The notes below the pieces were generated by a model. That model was not told the origin of the DNA. It was given only the letters and a program-made list of their open reading frames with translations, and searched no databases. A stretch of DNA of 9,419 bases from Halalkalibacterium halodurans (lineage in GTDB: Bacteria; Bacillota; Bacilli; Bacillales; Bacillaceae_D): assembly GCF_004376175.1 (NCBI RefSeq), contig NZ_SNUY01000010.1, positions 77,495 to 86,913 on the forward strand. Direction: 5' to 3'. A program made the translations under genes and the position numbers. Positions 675-9,366 of this stretch are shown here, piece by piece (position 1 is the stretch's first letter; every line of letters starts with the position of its first letter).

Positions 675-692
675 TGGTATGTCAACACTAAA

Positions 693-1511
693 TCAAACAA
701 TTTTTTTAAGGGCTAAGTTTCGATAACTTACCGGACTTTGATACCCAAGGGCACTGTGCGAACGAATGTTATTGTACCAATTGATATAATCAAAAAGTTC
801 AAGTTCCAGGTGGTAAAAGGAATGGAAATGCTCTCCATTGATTAGTTCCGTTTTCAAAATCTTAAATGTCGCTTCTGCCACCGCATTATCATAAGGGTTT
901 CCTTTATGGCTCAATGAGCGTCCAATCTCATATTCACTTAATCATTCATCAATGGCCACGTTTTTAAACTCAGATCCGCGGTCTGTATGAAAGAGTTTCA
1001 CATTCTCTAGTGGCCGATTAACCGATGCGAAAGCACGCTGAACTAAAGCTGCGTCTTTGCGTTGTCCAACGCTGTAACCAACTATTTCTCTATTGTATAA
1101 ATCGATTAAAAAACAGACGTAGTTCCAATGTTGTCCTACTTTGACATACGTTAGATCACTAACCAATACAGACATCTCTTCATCTACTTGAAATTCCCGA
1201 TCTAACACATTTGGAACGGATTCTTCATTTGGACGAGAGCTCACTGGTTTGTAGGACGGTTGTGCATACTTTGATTGAATTCCAAGCTCCTCCATTAATC
1301 TACCTATGCGACGTCTGGAAACCTTGTGACCCGCTTTTAAAAGGTCTCCTTTTATTTTGCGAGTTCCATATACTTTACGGTTTTCGTTAAAGATCTTTCG
1401 TATTTTCTCTTTTAATTCTTGTTCTTCTTTAGCCTTTTCTTTTTCTTTTTGAGCAGCTATTTCTGTTTCATAATAAAAGGTACTTCGAGCTATTTGTAGG
1501 ACTTCGCACAT
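693..1511 (-). pseudogene. IS3-family transposase OrfB (DDE/rve catalytic domain) interrupted by an in-frame TGA at 942-944
   Basis: Track ORFs 942-1511 and 693-914 are in the same frame, separated only by a TGA (reverse complement of 942-944): ...FHTDRGSEFKNVAIDE*LSEYEIGRSLSHKGNPYDNAVAEATF.... The first D (SDLTYV) and second D (HTDRGSEF) lie upstream of the stop. The catalytic E (YDNAVAE) lies downstream. The frame is also open upstream of the listed Met (..YFKASCADHGTKIEVIEKNLHLYSVSA-MCEV..), back into the orfA overlap, as expected for an OrfAB fusion. Confidence 0.85.
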
Positions 1512-1552
1512 TGCTGATACCGAATAAAGGTGCAGATTTTTTTCAATTACCT

Positions 1553-1834
1553 CTATTTTCGTCCCATGATCAGCGCAGCTTGCTTTAAAATATCGACCTC
1601 CATTTCTAGCTGTTTATTTCTTTTTCTTAATTCAATCAATTCTTGTTCTTCTGGGCTTCGATTGTCTTTTTCTTTAAACGAACCATACTGTTGAAACTGA
1701 GTAATCCATCTGTCTAATGCAGAAGCAGTTAATTCATATTCACGGACAATATCTTGACGGCTTTTTCCACCTTCATATAAAGCAACCACTTGCTTCTTAA
1801 ATTCTGTGGAAAACGTTCTTCTTTTTTTGGACAT
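1553..1834 (-). CDS. IS3-family transposase OrfA (HTH DNA-binding plus leucine-zipper-like C-terminus)
   Basis: The 93-aa product MSKKRRTFSTEFKKQVVALYEGGKSRQDIVREYELTASALDRWI... is a typical IS3 OrfA HTH, followed by a heptad-like ELIELRKRNKQLEMEVDILKQA. AAGGAG sits 10 nt upstream of the ATG (reverse complement of about 1845-1850). Confidence 0.9.
   Translation of the reverse strand: MSKKRRTFSTEFKKQVVALYEGGKSRQDIVREYELTASALDRWITQFQQYGSFKEKDNRSPEEQELIELRKRNKQLEMEVDILKQAALIMGRK
1583..1589 (-). promoter_or_regulatory. Candidate programmed -1 ribosomal frameshift heptamer U UUA AAG joining orfA to orfB
   Basis: The - strand reads GAT ATT TTA AAG CAA in the orfA frame, so T TTA AAG fits the X XXY YYZ pattern. 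The -1 frame (TTT AAA GCA AGC...) is the open orfB frame. The site lies 10 codons before the orfA stop, the usual IS3 arrangement. Confidence 0.55.
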
Positions 1835-1864
1835 AGTAGATTCGCTCCTTACTCGTTGTGTATT

Positions 1865-1894
1865 ATTCTACTAGCCCTTATTTTTATTGTCCAA
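1865..1894 (-). promoter_or_regulatory. Candidate sigma-A-type promoter inside the orfA-proximal terminal repeat of the IS3 element
   Basis: On the - strand: TTGGAC (1894-1889), an 18-nt spacer, then TAGAAT (1870-1865), located upstream of the orfA ribosome binding site and ATG. This is a hexamer match only. Confidence 0.3.
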
Positions 1895-1912
1895 CTAAGT
1901 GTAGCCTATCCA

Positions 1913-2084: not shown

Positions 2085-2137
2085 TGTTTAAGCTGATCTA
2101 AATATTCCGAAAGTTGATGCTAATGCCTGGCCGAAGG

Positions 2138-2166
2138 TTGACCGATATAATGACCAGAAGTATAAA
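2138..2166 (+). promoter_or_regulatory. Candidate sigma-A promoter in the transposon left end, driving the four-gene operon
   Basis: TTGACC (2138-2143), an exact 17-nt spacer, then TATAAA (2161-2166), about 35 nt upstream of the first ORF. The -35 hexamer overlaps one of the subterminal repeat copies (GGTTGACCGATATAA). Confidence 0.5.
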
Positions 2167-2199
2167 ATCTGGAGAAAGGAAAAGACGTCCCCCATAAAT

Positions 2200-2808
2200 G
2201 TGAAACTACGCCAACAGTTTCACAGGAGACGTCCACCCCAAAAAAGATTATGGTCATTATATCAAATTATTCCTTGGTTGAGAAGCAATCTGGCGTTTTT
2301 TGTTAGAAGTACGGAACGAATCCCCTGCCCTTGTTGTGGAGGAACACTTTCAGTGGCAGGAAGCCGGAAACGTGCATGGTATAAAAGCAGTGGCGAGCGC
2401 TCCAGGCTTGTGATTCGAAGGCTATATTGTGAGGCATGCGATAAGATTCATCATGAACTCCCTGATATTCTTGTGCCTTATAAAAGGTATGATGCGGAGA
2501 GTATAGAAGGTACCGTTTCTACACCACCACGTACAGAGGCAGCGGTGGATGAAGCAACCATCTTTCGATGGAAGAACTGGTTTCAGGTGTGGGTGGCGTA
2601 TGCCATCGGCTGCCTCCGGTCTATCGCGATACGTTTTGATCTGCCTGTGGAGGAATTGTCCGAATCTCCACAAACCGTACTTCACTCCCTGGGACAATAT
2701 GTAGGTATGGAGGAGGGATGGCTGAAGAGAGCTGTCCGTTCCATGACAAATTTAAATCTTTGGGTCACAGACCCGTTCCGCATTTCTGGCCGGACTGCTC
2801 TGGAGTAA
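2200..2808 (+). CDS. Cys4 zinc-ribbon protein of unknown function (DUF6431-like), first gene of the transposon
   Basis: The ORF is 202 aa and has the same elevated G+C as the following genes. It carries CPCCGG...(32 aa)...CEACDKIHHELPDILVPYKRY. From memory, the paired CxxC motifs followed by an LPD(F/I)LxPYKRY motif fit DUF6431 proteins that accompany transposases in Firmicutes. The start is uncertain: GTG at 2200 has only a distant GGAG, and there is no in-frame ATG before the zinc ribbon. Confidence 0.65.
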   Translation: MKLRQQFHRRRPPQKRLWSLYQIIPWLRSNLAFFVRSTERIPCPCCGGTLSVAGSRKRAWYKSSGERSRLVIRRLYCEACDKIHHELPDILVPYKRYDAESIEGTVSTPPRTEAAVDEATIFRWKNWFQVWVAYAIGCLRSIAIRFDLPVEELSESPQTVLHSLGQYVGMEEGWLKRAVRSMTNLNLWVTDPFRISGRTALE

Positions 2809-2823
2809 ACTCATGCTATACCA

Positions 2824-4197
2824 ATGAATGGGAGGCATGAGAAGATGAAAAGTCAACGGAAAGCGGAAGAAACAGCCGCGGAACGTATGCAGTTAATCTC
2901 CCCTCTTTTGGCGGAGGGGTTGGATGCTGGCAAAGCAAGGAAAATCAAGGCTGATATCTGTGAAAGAGCAGGTGTTTCGGAAAGGACCATCCGCCGGTAT
3001 CTTTCCCAGTACCGTAACGAAGGGTTCGAAGGCTTAAAGCCGAAGGAAAAAGGAAGAAAACCTGCCAGGACAGGGATCCCTCCTGCTTTACTGGAGGAGG
3101 CTATCCTTTTGAGGAGGGAGGTTCCGGGGCGGAGTGTCAGCCAGATCATTCAGATTCTTGAGTGGGAAGGAAAGGCAGAGCCGGGAGAATTAAAAAGGAG
3201 TACGCTCCAGGAAAAACTGGCTGAACGGGGCTACAGTTCCCGGCAAATGCGGATGTATACAAGCAGTGGAGTTGCCGCAAGAAGATTTCAAAGAAGGTAC
3301 CGGAACAGCCTTTGGCAGTCTGATATCAAGTATGGCCCCTTTCTACCGATTGGTCCCAACGGGACCAATAAGCAGGTATACCTAGTCTTGTTTATTGATG
3401 ACGCCACAAGATATGTTCTTCATGGTGAGTGGTATCCCACACTGGATCAGTCCATTGTCGAAGACTGCTTCCGTAAAGCGATACAAAAGGCGGGACTGCC
3501 TGAGGCCGTCTACTTTGATAACGGAAAACAGTACCGGACGAAGTGGATGGGGCGAACCTGTTCTAAACTGGGTATCCGTTTATTATACGCAAAGCCGTAC
3601 TCACCTGATTCGAAAGGGAAGGTGGAAAAGTTTAATAGGAACGTTCAGGCCTTTATGGATGAAGCAATGTTGGAAAAACCGAAAACATTGGATCAGTTTA
3701 ACCATCTCTTCCAGGCCTGGCTGAGTGAATGTTATCAGAATAAACCCCACTCTGCTTTGGACGCAGCCAGTCCTGAAGCTGCGTTCCGGTCCGATTCCAA
3801 AACGCTTCGTTTCCCTGAGGTGGATGTACTGGCCAATGCCTTTTTGCATTGCGAAGAAAGAAAAGTAGATAAAGCAGGCTGTATCAGCTTTATGGGCAAG
3901 AAATACGAAGTGGGTCTCTTGTTTATTGGCAGGAAGGTACAAGTGGTTTATGACCTGGCGGACATTTCAGAAGTAACCATTGAATATGAAGGGCATTCTC
4001 CGTGGAAAGCAAGAGAACTGGAGATCGGAGAGCGCGCAGGCAAAAGACCAGTTCTGCCGGATCACCTTCTGATCCAGGAAACAGACCACTCCCGATTACT
4101 ACAGGGAGCTGAACAAAAACTGGAAGAACGGAAACAGATTCAAGCCCCTGCCGTCTCCTACCGGAGAGTAAGGAAGGAGGAAAACGGCTATGTTTGA
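2824..4197 (+). CDS. DDE transposase, rve integrase core with Mu-transposase-type C-terminal domain (TniA/TnsB/MuA-like)
   Basis: N-terminal HTH: AGVSERTIRRYLSQYRNEGFEGLKPKEKGRKP. DDE triad candidates are WQSD, YFDNGKQY and SKGKVEKFNR. The C-terminus VDKAGCISFMGKKYEV..GRKVQVVYDLADISEV resembles the Mu transposase C-terminal beta-barrel. The likely true start is ATG 2845, which has GGGAGG at 2830-2835 and a 9-nt spacer, rather than 2824. Confidence 0.9.
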   Translation: MNGRHEKMKSQRKAEETAAERMQLISPLLAEGLDAGKARKIKADICERAGVSERTIRRYLSQYRNEGFEGLKPKEKGRKPARTGIPPALLEEAILLRREVPGRSVSQIIQILEWEGKAEPGELKRSTLQEKLAERGYSSRQMRMYTSSGVAARRFQRRYRNSLWQSDIKYGPFLPIGPNGTNKQVYLVLFIDDATRYVLHGEWYPTLDQSIVEDCFRKAIQKAGLPEAVYFDNGKQYRTKWMGRTCSKLGIRLLYAKPYSPDSKGKVEKFNRNVQAFMDEAMLEKPKTLDQFNHLFQAWLSECYQNKPHSALDAASPEAAFRSDSKTLRFPEVDVLANAFLHCEERKVDKAGCISFMGKKYEVGLLFIGRKVQVVYDLADISEVTIEYEGHSPWKARELEIGERAGKRPVLPDHLLIQETDHSRLLQGAEQKLEERKQIQAPAVSYRRVRKEENGYV

Positions 4198-4990
4198 AGC
4201 TTTTTATGAATTAACTCATACACCCTTTTCCCGGGCTATTCCAACGGAAGAGCTATATAATTCCTACCTGCTGGAAGAGACACTGGGCAGATTGGAATAC
4301 GCTGCGGAACGCCAGCTATTTGGAGTCGTTACAGGGGATTGCGGCACAGGAAAAACAACCACGATTCGTCGGTTTATGGATGGGCTGGATCCTTCCAAGT
4401 TCTCGCTTTTATATATTTCCGATTCGAAGCTGACGCCCAGGAACTTTTACAGAGGCGTTCTTGAACAGCTCGGCTGCGAATCTAAGTTTTATCGAGGAGA
4501 TGCGAAGAGGCAGCTCCACAAAGAGATTGAACTGATGCGTGGAATCCATGGTATTCAGCCGATTGTAGTAGTGGATGAAGCCCATTTACTGGACCGTGAA
4601 ATGCTTGAAGAGGTTCGGTTCTTATTGAATTTTAAAATGGATGCTCAAAGCCCGATGGCCCTTATACTGGTCGGCCAAAACGAACTTTGGGACCGCCTGA
4701 AGCTCCAGTCTTATTCGGCGATCCGCCAGCGAATTGACTTACAGTGCAAGCTGGTTCATTACGACCGTTCAGAGACAAAGGAATACATGAAGCGCCATCT
4801 GTCCTATTCCGGTGCGAAGCAGGAGATTTTTTCGGATGGGGCAGTAGATTGTATTTATAATTTTTCTAGTGGTTCCGCCCGGCTGATTAACAAAGTGTGT
4901 ACCCATAGTCTTTTATACGGGGCACAGAATAAGCGCAGGATTATCGATGATCATATGGTGAAACAGGTGATAGAAGGAGAACTATCTTGA
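4190..4990 (+). CDS. AAA+ ATPase, TniB/ExeA/MuB-like transposition helper
   Basis: Walker A is GDCGTGKTT and Walker B is IVVVDEAHLL. GGAGG at 4176-4180 lies 9 nt before the ATG. The ATG overlaps the transposase stop by 8 nt (ATGTTTGA), which suggests translational coupling. A position immediately downstream of the DDE transposase is typical of TniA-TniB and IstA-IstB pairs. Confidence 0.9.
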   Translation: MFEAFYELTHTPFSRAIPTEELYNSYLLEETLGRLEYAAERQLFGVVTGDCGTGKTTTIRRFMDGLDPSKFSLLYISDSKLTPRNFYRGVLEQLGCESKFYRGDAKRQLHKEIELMRGIHGIQPIVVVDEAHLLDREMLEEVRFLLNFKMDAQSPMALILVGQNELWDRLKLQSYSAIRQRIDLQCKLVHYDRSETKEYMKRHLSYSGAKQEIFSDGAVDCIYNFSSGSARLINKVCTHSLLYGAQNKRRIIDDHMVKQVIEGELS

Positions 4991-5220
4991 TGTGGGAATG
5001 TCGGTTTATCGCCTATTCTAAGCTTATGAAGTGTTGGCTTTTGGTAAAAGGGGAATATGGCCGCTTCCTGTATGAGGGAACCCGATTTTATATGCGTTTT
5101 GATGAAGGAGTCTTCCTTCCTTGTCAGCTCGAATTCGATAGACAGTGGTATGTGACCATCGGTGATGAGGGCATACGACTTAATTTGAGAAAGAACGAAG
5201 AATACCAAGTTTATATGTAA
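4987..5220 (+). CDS. Small (about 76 aa) protein of unknown function, DUF5348-like, last gene of the transposon
   Basis: The probable start, ATG 4990, overlaps the ATPase TGA stop (TGATG), with GAAGGAGA upstream (4973-4980). There is no TM segment or signal peptide. The beta-rich sequence GRFLYEGTRFYMRFDEGVFLPCQLEFDRQWYVTIGDEGIRLNL fits my recollection of DUF5348 proteins. The family name needs an HMM check. Confidence 0.6.
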   Translation: MMWECRFIAYSKLMKCWLLVKGEYGRFLYEGTRFYMRFDEGVFLPCQLEFDRQWYVTIGDEGIRLNLRKNEEYQVYM

Positions 5221-5225
5221 TTAAT

Positions 5226-5260
5226 AGGGAAGCGATGCACAACCAAGCTTCCCTTTCATT
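5226..5260 (+). terminator. Candidate intrinsic terminator after the transposon operon
   Basis: The stem AGGGAAGC (5226-5233) pairs with GCTTCCCT (5247-5254) around a 13-nt loop, followed by TTCATTT. It starts 6 nt after the stop at 5220. The U-tract is short and interrupted. Confidence 0.45.
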
Positions 5261-5332
5261 TGGACAAAATAGGGAGCAATATCGGGACAAAGTTTCCCGT
5301 CTTCCGCATGACTTTATATGGCGTCAGTAACA

Positions 5333-5338
5333 CCTTGT
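5333..5338. repeat. Target-site duplication (C)CTTGT, right copy
   Basis: See 2079-2084. Confidence 0.75.
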
Positions 5339-5449
5339 AATGTTCAGTATATAAATTGGCTAGGATTTATAACCATTCCTTTTTTATCTCTTACTGCATT
5401 TACCATTATTTCAGTTCTTTTGTTATTGATAAAAACGAATAAGAAGTAG
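5339..5449 (+). pseudogene. bdbC: BdbC/DsbB family protein, C-terminal fragment (codons 106-141 plus stop)
   Basis: NVQYINWLGFITIPFLSLTAFTIISVLLLLIKTNKK* follows the duplicated CCT TGT in frame. I recall B. subtilis BdbC as ..SGQYINWFGFITIPFLALIAFILIIILMCML... Confidence 0.85.
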
Positions 5450-5603: not shown

Positions 5604-6317
5604 TTAAAAATTAAACGGAACAAACCTTGCGAAATATGTAGCAAGAATACGGAATTGTCCAGTAAATAACAAAATGCCTAGTATAATCATAATTGCACCG
5701 CTAATTTTCTGTATAGTCGGTAGCAATCGGTTGAACTTTTTGAGCTTATGCAATGACTTTGACCATAACAATGCAACTGCAAAAAAGGGGAGGGCTAATC
5801 CCATTGAGTAAACAAACAACATAAGCATTCCTGTATATAGAGTTTCGGTTTGACTAGATAAGATAAGAATCGAAGAAAGGACAAGTCCAATACAAGGTGT
5901 CCAACCGGCTCCGAATACGATACCAAGAATGACGGAATTACCGAAACTAGCAGTCTTCCTTTTACCGATTGACAAACGTTTTTCTTTATAAAGCAAATTT
6001 AAAGAAATAACACCTATCATCTGTAACCCAAATACGAAAATAATAATACCGCCGATTTGCTCTATGAGAACTCGATTATTAGAAAATAATTGACCAATTA
6101 CAGTTGAAGAGGCTCCTAATATCATAAAGATAAGGGTGAACCCTGAGATAAAACCTATACTATTGTAAATGAGGAGCCGGCGATCAGCTTCAATTTGATT
6201 TTCCTTCACACTTGTTCCCGTTATTTGTGCTAAATAAGCCGGAACAAGGGGAAGCACACAGGGAGATAAAAAAGAAACTAAGCCCGCTGCAAATGCTAAC
6301 CAAATCGTTACCTCCAT
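5604..6317 (-). CDS. ccdA: Cytochrome c biogenesis thiol-disulfide transporter CcdA (DsbD-family membrane protein)
   Basis: The product is a 237-aa polytopic membrane protein. Both hallmark motifs are present: FLSPCVLPLVPAYL near the N-terminus and GWTPCIGLVL mid-protein. A strong ribosome binding site, GGAGGTG, lies 7 nt upstream of the ATG. Confidence 0.9.
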   Translation of the reverse strand: MEVTIWLAFAAGLVSFLSPCVLPLVPAYLAQITGTSVKENQIEADRRLLIYNSIGFISGFTLIFMILGASSTVIGQLFSNNRVLIEQIGGIIIFVFGLQMIGVISLNLLYKEKRLSIGKRKTASFGNSVILGIVFGAGWTPCIGLVLSSILILSSQTETLYTGMLMLFVYSMGLALPFFAVALLWSKSLHKLKKFNRLLPTIQKISGAIMIILGILLFTGQFRILATYFARFVPFNF

Positions 6318-6346
6318 TTTTAAACACCTCCAATGTTATGGAAAAA

Positions 6347-6862
6347 TTAATGGTTCGAATGATCACTTTCGTTATTGTTCTGATCAGTATTTCCCATTTC
6401 TAAATTAACTGTATCTGGTTTAGATGTGATTTCATCAACATCAACGTCTCCTACTACGACCATTTCTTTTTCCATACGATGCATATCACAAGCCGTTACA
6501 TGATAGTAAATGTAGTAAACACCTTCTTCTTCAAATGTCCAGTCAAGTTGGTAAACACCAGGTTCTACTTTCTCCGCTTTTAGTAGGTGATGATATTCCT
6601 GATTTCCATGTTCCCAAATTTCAAATTCAACTTGATTTGCGTTCTCAACAGGTAACCCTTCATGGGTGATAGTAGTACTAAAGGTCACTTTTTCGTTTGA
6701 TTCAGGTTCACTAAGATTGTAACCAGAATCTATTTCAATTGGCACAAGTGTATTAGAACAATCACTAGTTTTTTCTTCAGTCGAGCAGGCAGATAAAATC
6801 ATAAGTAATGCTAATGAAAGAAATATAAAGTATTTTTTCATTTTTATTTCAGCTTCTTTCAT
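6347..6862 (-). CDS. Lipoprotein, YtkA/FixH-like extracytoplasmic domain (possible metal or cytochrome-oxidase assembly factor), co-transcribed with ccdA
   Basis: The signal peptide has a lipobox (MKKYFIFLSLALLMILSAC|S). The more likely start is the internal ATG at 6841, not 6862. The His/Met-rich beta domain (VEFEIWEHGNQEYHHLL...YYHVTACDMHRMEKEM) resembles YtkA-like lipoproteins from memory. Only 29 nt separate it from ccdA. The C-terminal tail is acidic and Asn/His-rich. Confidence 0.7.
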   Translation of the reverse strand: MKEAEIKMKKYFIFLSLALLMILSACSTEEKTSDCSNTLVPIEIDSGYNLSEPESNEKVTFSTTITHEGLPVENANQVEFEIWEHGNQEYHHLLKAEKVEPGVYQLDWTFEEEGVYYIYYHVTACDMHRMEKEMVVVGDVDVDEITSKPDTVNLEMGNTDQNNNESDHSNH

Positions 6863-7079: not shown

Positions 7080-7841
7080 TTACCCTTCGGCGTTATTTTC
7101 TTTCCGTTTTATACTTTGCCTAAATCTATAAGACTCCCCGTTAAGTAAATGAATATGTGCTTTGTGGGTGAGACGATCTAAGAGGGCTGCTGTCATTTTT
7201 TCGTCTCCAAAAACGGAAGTCCATTCAGTAAAATCAAGATTGGTTGTGATAATAACGCTTGCGCGTTCATAGCGACTTGAGAAGAACTGAAACAATAGTT
7301 CTGATCCTATCTTTGAGAAGGGCACATATCCTAGCTCATCGATTATGATTACATCAAATTTGAGCCACTTTTTTTCAAATGAAAGCAGAGTATGCTCTTC
7401 TTTTGCCAATAATAATTCCTCTACTAATTGAGCAGCTGTTATAAACTTAACTTTAAGGCCGTTTTTGATTAGTTCAATCCCTAAACCTGTAGCTAGATGG
7501 GTTTTCCCGGTACCACTGTTTCCTAGAAATAATATGTTCTCTTTCTTTTGGACAAATTCTCCTTTAGCCAGGGTCAAAAATCGATTTTTGTTTAGGCTAG
7601 GCATTAAGCTAAAATCATACGAATCTAACGTTTTTTGTACGGTAAATGTAGCTTGCTTAAGTCGCCTTTGTTTTTGATTTTCTTCCCTTGTTTGGAGCTC
7701 AAGTTCTAATAGAGCCATCAGGTATTCTTCATAACGTAAGTTTCTTTCTTCAGCCTCTCTTGCGAGAGAACGATACTGTTTAGCGATCGTTGGCATCCTC
7801 AATTGTTTAGTTATGTGGTCTAATAATAATTCAGTGGTCAT
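7080..7841 (-). CDS. istB: IS21-family helper ATPase IstB
   Basis: Walker A is GNSGTGKTHLA and Walker B is VIIIDELGY. The typical IstB C-terminus is present (ITTNLDFTEWTSVFGDEKMTAALLDRLTHKAHI). The start lies 1 nt after the istA stop. Confidence 0.95.
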   Translation of the reverse strand: MTTELLLDHITKQLRMPTIAKQYRSLAREAEERNLRYEEYLMALLELELQTREENQKQRRLKQATFTVQKTLDSYDFSLMPSLNKNRFLTLAKGEFVQKKENILFLGNSGTGKTHLATGLGIELIKNGLKVKFITAAQLVEELLLAKEEHTLLSFEKKWLKFDVIIIDELGYVPFSKIGSELLFQFFSSRYERASVIITTNLDFTEWTSVFGDEKMTAALLDRLTHKAHIHLLNGESYRFRQSIKRKENNAEG

Positions 7842-7842
7842 T

Positions 7843-9366
7843 TTACTGTCCCCCTGTCAATTGCCCATACTGTGATATGCTAGACTTTTGAATTTTGTAA
7901 TCTAACAAACTCAAAGGGGTATTTTCAATAGGGAGTTTATCGATTGTCACGTCATTATTTGTCAATCGCTGAATTAGCTCATGAACGACTTCATAACGAT
8001 AAACCTGTGTTTTTTCTGCTTGTATTAGAGCTTTTGTTAAATTTTCCATTCCTATCTCGCGATGCAGGAGCAGGAGACGTATGAATTTTCGGTCACCATT
8101 CGCACCTTCTTCTTCACGCATTTTATGATGAAACCTCCTAAACACATCTGGGATGTCTGAAGATTGAAATGCATGAGCATCTCGGATCGCTCTTGGCTTT
8201 TTCAATAGGGCTTCTAAATAATGATCAAGAACTGTAATCATCTGATTCCGTTCGTAAGAGCGGGGATGTTGTGCGATTACCTGGTTTTGAGCCACTACGA
8301 TTACTTGATCCACAAAAATTTTTACCCAAACAGCTTGTCCAACATAACGACATGGAACCGAATATTGATTTGTTTCAACAGTGATTAATGAGGTTTTGTT
8401 CACTTGACACGAAACTAATTTACAAGCTTCGAATTTGTTGGCTGGAAGAGGGTGTAGATGTTCTTTTTCTTTATGCCACATTTGTAAGACTGTTTCTTTT
8501 CTATGTGGTACTTTTCTTCTTTCTGATTCTTCCATACACCAATTTAAAAGATAATTATTTAATTCTTCCATTGATTGTACTTCTGGCAATGGAACGAAGG
8601 CATTTCTTCGGACATAACCAACGGTTCCTTCCACTCTACCTTTTTCGTTCCCAGCTCTAACGTTACAAAATTCTGCTTTAAATAAATAGTGAGCTTGCAG
8701 GGCAAGAAAAGCCTCCTGTTCAAGTCGATCTCTTCCTTGTAAATTCTTTTGCACGGCTGTTTTTAAATTATCAAAAAGTCCTTCTGTCGGAACACCTCCA
8801 AAAAATTGAAAAGCATGCACAAATCCATCTAAGAAAGCCTCTTGTTTTTCATGAAGGTATGCTCTGACGAATCTCATTCGAGATGCCGAAAGTTGCATAC
8901 AGAAGAGGAAAATACGTTGTTTTCGACCCTGTAGTATAATATCCGCCTCTCCCCAGTCGAATTGGAATTGGTGGCCGAGTTGAAAGTCAAGAGGGATAAA
9001 GACTTCCTGTAGCTTCTTTTTGCGCTTTGCAACAATTTTTCTCAGATTAGATTCAGAACCTTTAAATTCATATTCAGCTACTAATCTCTCATACATCCGT
9101 GCAGCTGTATGGCGTTGTTTTCCCCAACGCTTTAAATCATCTTCTAACCATTTATCGATAATAGGTAATATTCTCTCGGTTTCTTCAGAATACTTTGCTT
9201 TACCATATACTTTTTTACGATGAATAGTTGTTGGGGGTTCACCTTGCTTTAAATATTTACTTACAGTATTTCTTGATATTCCTAACTTTTTAGCTATTTG
9301 CCTTTGCGACAGTCCTTCTACCTCTTTCATAAATTTGATATTATAAAATTGAGCCATGTTGATCAT
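7843..9366 (-). CDS. istA: IS21-family transposase IstA
   Basis: N-terminal HTH: GLSQRQIAKKLGISRNTVSKYL. DDE candidates are QFDWGEA, LFDNLKTAV and GNEKGRVEG. The probable true start is the second ATG at 9357 (MAQFYN...), because AAGGA directly abuts ATG 9366 but lies 8 nt before ATG 9357. Confidence 0.95.
   Translation of the reverse strand: MINMAQFYNIKFMKEVEGLSQRQIAKKLGISRNTVSKYLKQGEPPTTIHRKKVYGKAKYSEETERILPIIDKWLEDDLKRWGKQRHTAARMYERLVAEYEFKGSESNLRKIVAKRKKKLQEVFIPLDFQLGHQFQFDWGEADIILQGRKQRIFLFCMQLSASRMRFVRAYLHEKQEAFLDGFVHAFQFFGGVPTEGLFDNLKTAVQKNLQGRDRLEQEAFLALQAHYLFKAEFCNVRAGNEKGRVEGTVGYVRRNAFVPLPEVQSMEELNNYLLNWCMEESERRKVPHRKETVLQMWHKEKEHLHPLPANKFEACKLVSCQVNKTSLITVETNQYSVPCRYVGQAVWVKIFVDQVIVVAQNQVIAQHPRSYERNQMITVLDHYLEALLKKPRAIRDAHAFQSSDIPDVFRRFHHKMREEEGANGDRKFIRLLLLHREIGMENLTKALIQAEKTQVYRYEVVHELIQRLTNNDVTIDKLPIENTPLSLLDYKIQKSSISQYGQLTGGQ

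Follow-up and report, generated by a model that had tools for sequence, protein, structure and literature searches.

The 9,419-nucleotide stretch of Halalkalibacterium halodurans DNA analysed here (contig NZ_SNUY01000010.1, positions 77,495 to 86,913; below, the window) contains a compact transposable element of 3,248 bp, whose four genes follow one another on the plus strand. The element begins at 2085 (TGTTTAAGC...) and ends at 5332 (...CAGTAACA), and its open reading frames (ORFs) code for a zinc-ribbon protein of the Pfam family DUF6431 (ORF1), a DDE transposase (ORF2), an AAA+ ATPase (ORF3) and a small DUF5348 protein (ORF4). Its features are listed below together with the gene that it interrupts. 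The repeats are numbered from each terminus inwards, and their scores come from site matrices that were built from relatives only, with the window excluded, and then scanned window-wide.

2085–5332, plus strand: transposable element, 3,248 bp, with TGTT...AACA ends; the near-identical copies L088–L091 stop exactly here, and the ends are common to more than 30 relatives
2079–2084, no strand: left copy of the target-site duplication, CCTTGT, 6 bp, identical to 5333–5338
5333–5338, no strand: right copy of the target-site duplication, CCTTGT, read from the window sequence
2085–2108, plus strand: left terminal repeat L1, presumed transposase-binding and cleavage site; 17.2 bits with the terminal matrix, second-best in the window after the right terminus
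2113–2133, plus strand: left inner repeat L2 (GTTGATGCTAATGCCTGGCCG); best window-wide match of the site-2 matrix, 18.7 bits, its position kept in 27 distinct left ends
2137–2156, plus strand: left inner repeat L3 (GTTGACCGATATAATGACCA); best match of the site-3 matrix, 19.6 bits, containing TATAAT at 2146–2151
2200–2808, plus strand: ORF1, zinc-ribbon and helical protein DUF6431 (Pfam, 8e-29); start codon uncertain
2824–4197, plus strand: ORF2, DDE transposase with a helix-turn-helix (HTH), an RNase H-like core (D167/D232/E268), a Mu-type beta-barrel and a conserved C-terminal tail
4190–4990, plus strand: ORF3, AAA+ ATPase of MuB/TnsC/TniB/ExeA type (AAA_22, 2e-24), overlapping ORF2 by 8 nt
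4987–5220, plus strand: ORF4, small all-beta DUF5348 protein in the accessory slot; its ATG at 4990 overlaps the ORF3 stop
5226–5261, plus strand: possible terminator, 8-bp stem and 13-nt loop followed by UUCAUUU; weak (fold energy -13.4 kcal/mol, z-score only -1.5)
5262–5304, minus strand: right inner repeats R3 (5262–5279) and R2 (5284–5304), in positions that match R2 and R3 of relatives; degenerate, with mainly the TGTCC half-sites kept
5309–5332, minus strand: right terminal repeat R1 (TGTTACTGACGCCATATAAAGTCA on the minus strand); best window-wide match of the terminal matrix, 23.8 bits
528–674, plus strand: 5′ part of the target gene, bdbC/dsbB-like, with a Pfam DsbB match on the fragment; the gene resumes at 1917–2084 and then at 5333–5449

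The limits of the element are well defined. Four independent assemblies (L088–L091) carry it with 99.97–100% identity, or 0–1 mismatch over 3,248 bp, and their similarity to the window breaks off at exactly 2085 and 5332. The bdbC/dsbB-like gene of the window is interrupted twice, by an IS3-family insertion sequence (IS) and by the 3,248-bp element; deleting 2085–5338 in silico, along with the IS3-type insertion at 675–1916, restores an ORF of 140 amino acids, whose product aligns with positions 3–147 of the 148 of the Pfam DsbB model (E = 4e-12). These boundaries, the duplication and the restored DsbB ORF bear out what a first-pass annotation, made from the sequence alone, had proposed, namely a discrete, intact and cargo-free transposon. 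That annotation would have given up its ends had other copies shown different boundaries, and the near-identical copies share the limits at 2085 and 5332 exactly. It had put the duplication at 5–6 bp: the duplication is present, and its length is 6 bp here and mostly 6 (range 5–7) in the family. It had also read the high G+C of the element as a sign of recent arrival. The element is indeed richer (44–52%, against 31–38% in the flanks), but this carries little weight, since it is only in the immediate flanks that G+C is low. Copy number and sequence identity are more telling. The flanking CcdA, FixH/YtkA-like protein, IstB and IstA are identical to successive proteins of a single H. halodurans genome, in which the ORF3 ATPase has four accessions and which must therefore hold at least four copies of the element; these copies in the host genome, together with a difference of only 0–1 base between copies across samples, speak for recent arrival. 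An Rfam scan of the whole window returned zero RNA families.

The two proteins at the centre of the element have recognisable relatives. ORF2 encodes 457 amino acids, and Pfam rve (51.3 bits) and Mu-transpos_C (31.7 bits) both score above their cut-offs, with further matches to rve_3 and HTH models. It matches PHROG 310, the 'transposase' of Mu-type phages, at 6e-53, and its family profile retrieves ShCAST TnsB from the PDB as the best entry (1.4e-12), followed by IstA (7e-10) and then by retroviral integrases. With Tn552 p480 it can be aligned by hhalign over 373 columns, from HTH to barrel and with D167/D232/E268 in register (99.1% probability, E = 6.5e-19). None of the NCBIfam IS-family models passes its cut-off with ORF2; IS481 is the best of them with 186.1 bits (cut-off 224), and IS21 reaches 59.7 bits (cut-off 160). 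In the C-terminal tail, R424, L425, L426 and R436 are invariant and S423 is found in at least 90% of sequences, the rest being variable; this stretch (residues 423–436, encoded at about 4090–4131) could be the contact for the ATPase, by analogy with MuA and TnsB. ORF3 comes to 22.3 bits with Pfam TniB (cut-off 22.4), matches PHROG 296, 'DNA transposition protein', at 2e-23, and with its family profile finds MuB as best PDB entry (1.3e-9) and VchTnsC at 3.5e-4. It has no match to Pfam IstB_IS21, whereas the IstB of an IS21 element in the same window scores 4e-72. By these sequence matches, ORF2 and ORF3 belong with the transposase and ATPase pair of the Mu/Tn7/Tn5053/Tn552 superfamily. The initial calls of a Mu/TniA-like transposase and a TniB-like ATPase therefore hold, on the strength of rve and Mu-transpos_C, AAA_22 and the TnsB, MuB and TnsC matches, and the profile searches that the first-pass annotation had suggested confirmed its domain calls for all four proteins.

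For ORF1, the zinc-ribbon call rests on the Pfam match and on an AlphaFold2 model with a predicted local distance difference test score (pLDDT) of 62, in which a three-stranded ribbon (residues 49–85) is followed by helices. The first ~40 residues are poorly conserved in the alignment and disordered in the model. The family alignment displays the signature PCPCC...CxxC...HHELPD and many invariant basic residues; among 55 aligned sequences R73, R74, C77, H85, E86, L87, P88, P93, K95, E103, R123 and W127 are invariant, and D89 is conserved in at least 90%. Wherever a locus extends far enough, DUF6431 precedes the transposase gene, and the DUF6431/DDE/AAA+ trio is kept at 30–35% identity in Metabacillus, Clostridium estertheticum and Streptomyces. 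A Rhodococcus relative has a sub-threshold DUF6431 match and a weak HTH. An exhaustive profile search found 1,630 DUF6431 clusters at 50% identity, 833 of them at E <=1e-10, and the 150 clusters among the matches listed are all small stand-alone proteins. The family profile found zero homologues among PDB sequences, and Foldseek of ORF1 against the PDB and viral models gave nothing significant, the best matches being generic zinc ribbons and the zinc-ribbon of large serine integrases (E = 0.09). We also considered ORF1 as a disguised TniQ, TnsD or TnsA and found no support for this: searches of the 55 members against Pfam at E <=5 gave no such signal and returned generic zinc ribbons only (DUF2089, recombinase, IS66, ISL3 and IS1595 types). 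Our guess is that DUF6431 is a DNA-binding accessory subunit or a regulator at work on the ends, where the presumed promoter falls within the binding sites.

Alignment of 27 distinct ends revealed three directly repeated sites per end, spaced at 24–25 bp. The terminal sites share the consensus TGTTACTGnnnnnnTATAATGnCC / TGTTAnTGnnnnnnTATAATGnCC, and the inner sites approximate TTGACGG-N6-7-TGTCC. An exact TATAAT occurs in the third left site of 24 of the 27 elements and in 0 of the equivalent right-end R3 sites, and in most relatives TTGCCT sits 17 bp upstream of it. Judged by motif and position, TATAAT at 2146–2151 may serve the operon promoter as its −10 box; the −35 region of this copy is poor (ATGCCT, 2123–2128). 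If the operon promoter is embedded in transposase sites in this way, expression would probably be autoregulated. Downstream of the genes, the hairpin at 5226–5261 was missed by a terminator scan because its loop exceeds 8 nt.

The element belongs to a widespread family, whose core is three co-transcribed genes: DUF6431, DDE transposase and AAA+ ATPase. Scanning one genome per species yielded 80 loci with 54–77% transposase identity in Bacillaceae, Paenibacillaceae, Alicyclobacillaceae, Desulfitobacteriia, Lachnospiraceae and others, and a translated search placed the co-oriented unit on plasmids of Alicyclobacillus, Planococcus and Ruminococcus albus; megablast of the element itself against plasmids gave zero matches. 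Family elements measure 3.0–3.4 kb and, wherever the contig is long enough, have the trio, TGTT...AACA ends, three sites at each end and a ~6-bp duplication. Many draft contigs of 3.0–3.3 kb are exactly the element, as would be expected of repeats collapsed in draft assemblies. Among 35 related copies in ~25 genera that were delimited by script, all 35 begin with TGT and end with ACA, so that the TGT...ACA ends and subterminal repeats first noticed in this one copy are real, the repeats having been found both by family alignment and by matrix scan. The duplication is a perfect 6 bp in 23 of the 35, and 5 or 7 bp long in four more (L009, L059; L012, L016). Of 24 six-base duplications, 23 have a pyrimidine at position 2 and 22 have a purine at position 5, which gives a symmetric target, N-Y-N-N-R-N, reminiscent of Mu.

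Multiplication within genomes is equally apparent. Tumebacillus avium has at least 11 copies, with three sublineages of 2, 2 and 6; copies are 100% identical within a sublineage and lie at different sites with different duplications, and have therefore transposed recently. All 16 copies examined from multi-copy genomes (the 11 of T. avium and 5 from two other genomes) carry their own duplication, and none among these 16 shows swapped half-duplications. In Clostridium sp. JS66 a DUF6431/DDE/AAA cassette is present 15 times, described there as an unnamed 'repetitive gene cassette'; in an evolved JS66 strain two copies bordered a large deletion that left one copy, which the authors of that work ascribe to homologous recombination.

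Several loci of the family show further peculiarities. Nested insertions occur in L073 (T. avium) and L042 (Mesobacillus persicus), one of ~2.5 kb within the transposase gene and the other of ~3 kb between the DUF6431 and transposase genes. In a Desulfitobacterium metagenome assembly (L029, 1187–3359) a distant DDE and AAA+ pair, with 30% and 37% identity to ORF2 and ORF3, sits ~1 kb upstream of a family copy. On a plasmid of Streptomyces sp. NBC_01462 (L085, 3214–3492) an extra ORF of 92 amino acids lies between the transposase and ATPase genes and overlaps both; it has zero matches in Pfam or PHROG. Finally, T. avium locus L046 (770–847) shows a lone inverted left end ~3.4 kb from a complete copy, perhaps left behind by a further insertion or by a rearrangement.

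The fourth gene is the variable part of the operon. In the window, the ORF3 stop and ORF4 start share the sequence TGATG, with GAAGGAG upstream. ORF4 alone reaches 18.5 bits with DUF5348, below the cut-off of 22.8, and 20 of 22 aligned relatives match that family (best 7e-21); the DUF5348-like character originally assigned to it is thereby upheld. Its AlphaFold2 model (pLDDT 91) has a single strong match in Foldseek, 3NRL, the uncharacterised R. gnavus protein RUMGNA_01417 (template-modelling score 0.71–0.79), and matches to Tudor-like folds are weak. The first-pass annotation had described a four-gene unit, which is right for this copy; the core of the family is three genes, and the slot behind the ATPase gene is variable. 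In relatives it holds DUF5348, a DUF6618-like protein of ~106 amino acids, an unnamed family of 85–92 amino acids or other small ORFs, all beginning at the ATPase stop codon, or it is empty, as in Tumebacillus, Aneurinibacillus and some Neobacillus elements of 3.0 kb. The T. avium elements stop ~113 bp past the ATPase gene, and six identical T. avium copies without a fourth gene each have their own duplication. Because an element lacking ORF4 has multiplied in this way, ORF4 is not required for transposition, and we propose that the fourth-slot protein is a non-essential modulator.

As to the alternative occupants of the slot, the 85–92-amino-acid family carries the motif 'EEYFxKTGFYDLLP' and was seen in Desulfosporosinus, Desulfitobacterium and Gracilibacter, and the ~106-amino-acid family, which matches DUF6618 weakly to clearly, in Clostridia and Lachnospiraceae. 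Unrelated proteins occupy the slot at loci L005, L021, L023, L029, L036 and L082, at L033, L041, L044, L045, L061, L065, L077 and L079, and at L086.

How does the element compare with known systems? Tn552 of Staphylococcus aureus (p480, p271, BinL) shares with it a Gram-positive host, a colinear DDE transposase, an ATPase gene that overlaps the end of the transposase gene, and TG...CA ends with repeated transposase sites. The duplication, 6 bp here and 5–7 bp in the family, matches only Tn552 within the superfamily, for which Rowland and Dyke reportedly found 6–7 bp in 1990; those of Mu, Tn7 and Tn5053 are 5 bp. Unlike Tn552, the element has no resolvase or res site and no cargo, has an extra zinc-ribbon gene upstream, and is only ~22% identical, with ORF3 resembling p271 at the P-loop only. 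In the pN315 copy of Tn552, recombinase genes flank the transposase and ATPase pair, and all Tn552-like relatives inspected (pN315, Listeria and Novosphingobium, at ~22–25% identity) have a serine recombinase beside the transposase, which the DUF6431 clade never shows. The gene that follows the transposase in pN315 (L087, 4459–5217) has the P-loop GQPGVGKT and is labelled 'recombinase family protein'; we take it to be p271, and the label looks like an annotation error.

Mu resembles the element in both PHROG matches, in MuB as the best ATPase match in the PDB, in three sites per end, in a symmetric Y...R target (N-Y-(G/C)-R-N in Mu) and in the lack of both resolvase and TnsA. It differs in that the present element is 3.2 kb long and not a phage, encodes a transposase of 457 amino acids (MuA has 663), makes a 6-bp rather than a 5-bp duplication and carries the DUF6431 gene in place of c/ner; in contrast to Mu, no enhancer or repressor genes were recognised in the element. 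With Tn5053/Tn402 and with Tn7 and CRISPR-associated transposons it has in common the logic of transposase plus ATPase and the arrays of subterminal sites; in the PDB the transposase comes closest to ShCAST TnsB, the ATPase matches TnsC, and, as regards Tn5053, Pfam TniB lies at its cut-off and counterparts of tniA and tniB only are present. It departs from them in its 6-bp duplication and in the lack of TniQ/TnsD, TnsA, TniR and a fixed attachment site. The initial statement that TnsA, TniQ and resolvase are missing was correct: Pfam and NCBIfam scans of the four element proteins found none, there is no room for another gene, and the 55 DUF6431 members were negative as well. Nor does this element carry cargo, in which it differs from Tn7-like elements, of which 96% do (Benler et al.).

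The resemblance to insertion sequences is more limited. IS21 has multiple terminal repeats, TG...CA ends and, in IstA, the second-best PDB match of the transposase; the present element differs from it by scoring far below the cut-off of the NCBIfam IS21 model, by an ATPase that is not IstB/DnaC-like and by its third core gene. IS21 is, to our knowledge, the only well-studied compact IS that pairs a DDE transposase with an AAA+ helper. IS481 provides the best named IS model for the HTH and catalytic core and likewise makes ~6-bp duplications, and some duplications of the present family fit NCTAGN (ACTAGC, TCTAGA) as in IS481. IS481 members are, however, single-gene elements of ~1 kb, and the present element scores below the IS481 cut-off, has a Mu-type C-terminal barrel and carries two or three extra genes.

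On sequence features, then, the element fails the defining features of every named family compared: Tn552, Tn7, Tn5053, IS21 and IS481. We rate it as a compact, cargo-free, three-protein element of the Mu/Tn552 superfamily in which a conserved subunit is new and an accessory slot varies, ISfinder and TnCentral having been outside the comparison; as an architecture, it is the expected kind of variation within a well-known superfamily. In the literature, likewise with ISfinder and TnCentral outside the comparison, we found no published name or mechanism for the DUF6431/DDE/AAA+ gene order, in agreement with what the first-pass annotation had supposed. DUF6431 appears in the literature searched as an annotation label only (the Clostridium sp. 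JS66 cassette and an R. gnavus gene table), and DUF5348 was not found mentioned there. The PGAP labels of relatives are generic: 'DDE-type integrase/transposase/recombinase', 'AAA family ATPase' and 'DUF6431 domain-containing protein'.

Taken together, we consider it likely that this is an autonomous, recently active, IS-like transposon of the Mu/Tn552/Tn5053/Tn7 superfamily, from a family widespread in Bacillota and with relatives in Actinomycetota, which moves by means of its three-gene core as follows. The transposase would bind the three directly repeated sites at each end, pair the ends and expose the 3′-OH at the terminal ...CA. The ATP-bound ATPase, sitting on target DNA, would recruit and activate the transposase-end complex, probably by contacting the conserved C-terminal tail of the transposase. 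The two 3′ ends would then attack the target 6 bp apart at N-Y-N-N-R-N sites, and filling of the gaps by host repair or replication would create the 6-bp duplication. Given that the element has no resolvase or TnsA and that nearly every copy is a simple insertion flanked by a duplication of its own, a pathway independent of cointegrate resolution is favoured; the 5′ strands might be dealt with either by nicking, joining and repair as in Mu infection, or by donor excision followed by repair from the sister chromosome.

Several points weigh against this reading. The mechanistic steps rest on analogy for all members of the family: boundaries, duplications, site arrays, homologies, multiplication and dispensability of the fourth gene are observed, and all chemistry and protein contacts are taken over from the known families. 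A Mu-type pathway is not assured, because the best IS model is IS481, and relatives of the IS481, IS3 and IS21 kinds transpose through junctions or circles. The hhalign comparison of ORF3 with Tn552 p271 gave a 26-column P-loop match only, at a probability of 11.6%. At the right end of this copy, R2 reaches no more than 4.6 bits, which ranks fourth in the window, and the top matches do not include R3; at the left end, a simple promoter scan called no promoter at TATAAT. About 8 of the 35 delimited copies are without a matching duplication or had an end misplaced by the script, and missing duplications are compatible with some replicative intramolecular events or later recombination. Lastly, the role of DUF6431 is a guess, as it has no informative homologue or fold match and a pLDDT of only 62.

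Two other routes of transposition deserve consideration. The copy-out/paste-in or reactive-junction route of IS3, IS481 and IS21, in which one end attacks beside the other to give a circle or tandem junction, needs neither resolvase nor TnsA and would leave the ATPase as an IstB-like target-capture helper only. It would suit a compact, cargo-free element without resolvase that has many identical copies and clean duplications, and the top named IS models for ORF2 are indeed IS481 (186 bits), an ISNCY model, IS3 and IS21; tblastn, too, scores the IS481-like ISEc19 (5e-15) above Tn552 (~1e-6), and IstA is second in the PDB. We nevertheless regard this route as unlikely, since the ATPase is of MuB/TnsC type with no sign of the IstB_IS21 domain that is so evident in the IS21 element of the window, no IS-family model reaches its cut-off, and the Mu-type beta-barrel, the Mu-phage PHROG match and the end-to-end colinearity with Tn552 p480 point to the Mu side, as do three-site arrays and a symmetric Y...R target like those of Mu, Tn7 and Tn552; no junction sequence was seen in any locus retrieved, though no dedicated search was made. 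Replicative transposition through a cointegrate, as in Tn552, Tn5053 and lytic Mu, with a lost resolvase replaced by host homologous recombination, strikes us as distinctly improbable. A serine recombinase accompanies the same pair in all the more distant relatives inspected, which implies an ancestral chemistry that makes cointegrates, and rising copy number within genomes, copies without matching duplications and the JS66 deletion, bordered by two copies and resolved to one, could all be so explained. That deletion, however, is attributed by its authors to homologous recombination; the 11 T. avium and 5 other copies carry their own duplications with none swapped by halves; and a resolvase is consistently missing throughout a deep clade that extends from Bacillota to Streptomyces, which speaks against resolution as a necessary step.

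The place of DUF6431 within the machine can be seen in more than one way. It is doubtful that the protein is a functional equivalent of TniQ/TnsD, selecting targets and loading the ATPase, or of TnsA, the 5′-strand nuclease, even though the element has no other candidate for these roles, the gene is always first in the operon across very divergent relatives (with the weak match in Rhodococcus), and many of its invariant residues are polar or charged (H85, E86, K95 and E103, with D89 at >=90%). None of the 55 members matches TniQ or TnsA even at E <=5, neither PDB sequences nor folds offer a significant relative, the model predicts a ribbon and helices and not a restriction-endonuclease-like fold, and the target shows only the loose N-Y-N-N-R-N preference without a fixed attachment site. 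That the whole unit is only one part of a larger mobile element, be it a Tn7-like or Tn552-like transposon or a transposable prophage, as the matches of transposase and ATPase to Mu-phage protein families might suggest, is scarcely credible, given exact 3.0–3.4-kb boundaries with duplications conserved in more than 30 copies, draft contigs that consist of exactly this unit, identical multi-copy sets, and a host gene that is restored by precise removal of the unit. Tentatively, DUF6431 might instead be a subunit that transposition requires and that works by a new kind of mechanism, enabling simple insertions free of TnsA and resolvase by a MuA/MuB-type machine, with the small, translationally coupled proteins of the fourth slot (DUF5348, DUF6618 and others) as interchangeable modules that tune target choice, immunity or the use of host factors. 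As such a subunit, DUF6431 might link the transposase to the ends or to the ATPase filament, or handle the 5′ strands.

Transposons that combine a DDE transposase with an ATPase of the MuB/TnsC type (Mu, Tn7 and CRISPR-guided systems) are central models and genome-engineering tools, and all characterised members known to us need extra partners (TnsA, TniQ, resolvase) or a phage life cycle. The family described here is a very compact natural version of 3.0–3.3 kb, with core proteins of ~170–200, 450 and 266 amino acids, which has multiplied in genomes. The role of DUF6431, conserved from Bacillota to Streptomyces, would reveal how such a machine completes transposition without the known helpers and, if the protein is an essential subunit, the element would represent a minimal Mu-like system, with just three proteins encoded in 3 kb. 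More immediately, three Pfam domains receive a genomic context, DUF6431 as a core transposon gene and DUF5348 and DUF6618 as alternative accessory genes; the recurrent 3.0–3.3-kb collapsed-repeat contigs in draft Bacillota genomes are accounted for; and the 'repetitive gene cassette' bordering the large deletion in the evolved Clostridium strain JS66 is identified.

Besides this element, the window contains two further mobile elements, so that three IS types lie inside 9.4 kb. The IS3-family element in the same bdbC gene (675–1912, minus strand) has a GTAC duplication (671–674 and 1913–1916), TGG...CCA ends and imperfect inverted repeats of ~40 bp; its orfB is broken into two ORFs (942–1511 and 693–914), and the copy is therefore probably defective. 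An IS21-family element at 7080–9366, minus strand, encodes an IstA of 507 and an IstB of 253 amino acids, both of them identical to H. halodurans proteins of which several copies exist. Between them, at 5604–6862 on the minus strand, ccdA (DsbD_TM domain) and a YtkA/FixH-like lipoprotein gene adjoin the broken bdbC, the three forming a thiol-disulfide/cytochrome-maturation cluster whose bdbC member has been inactivated twice in this strain.

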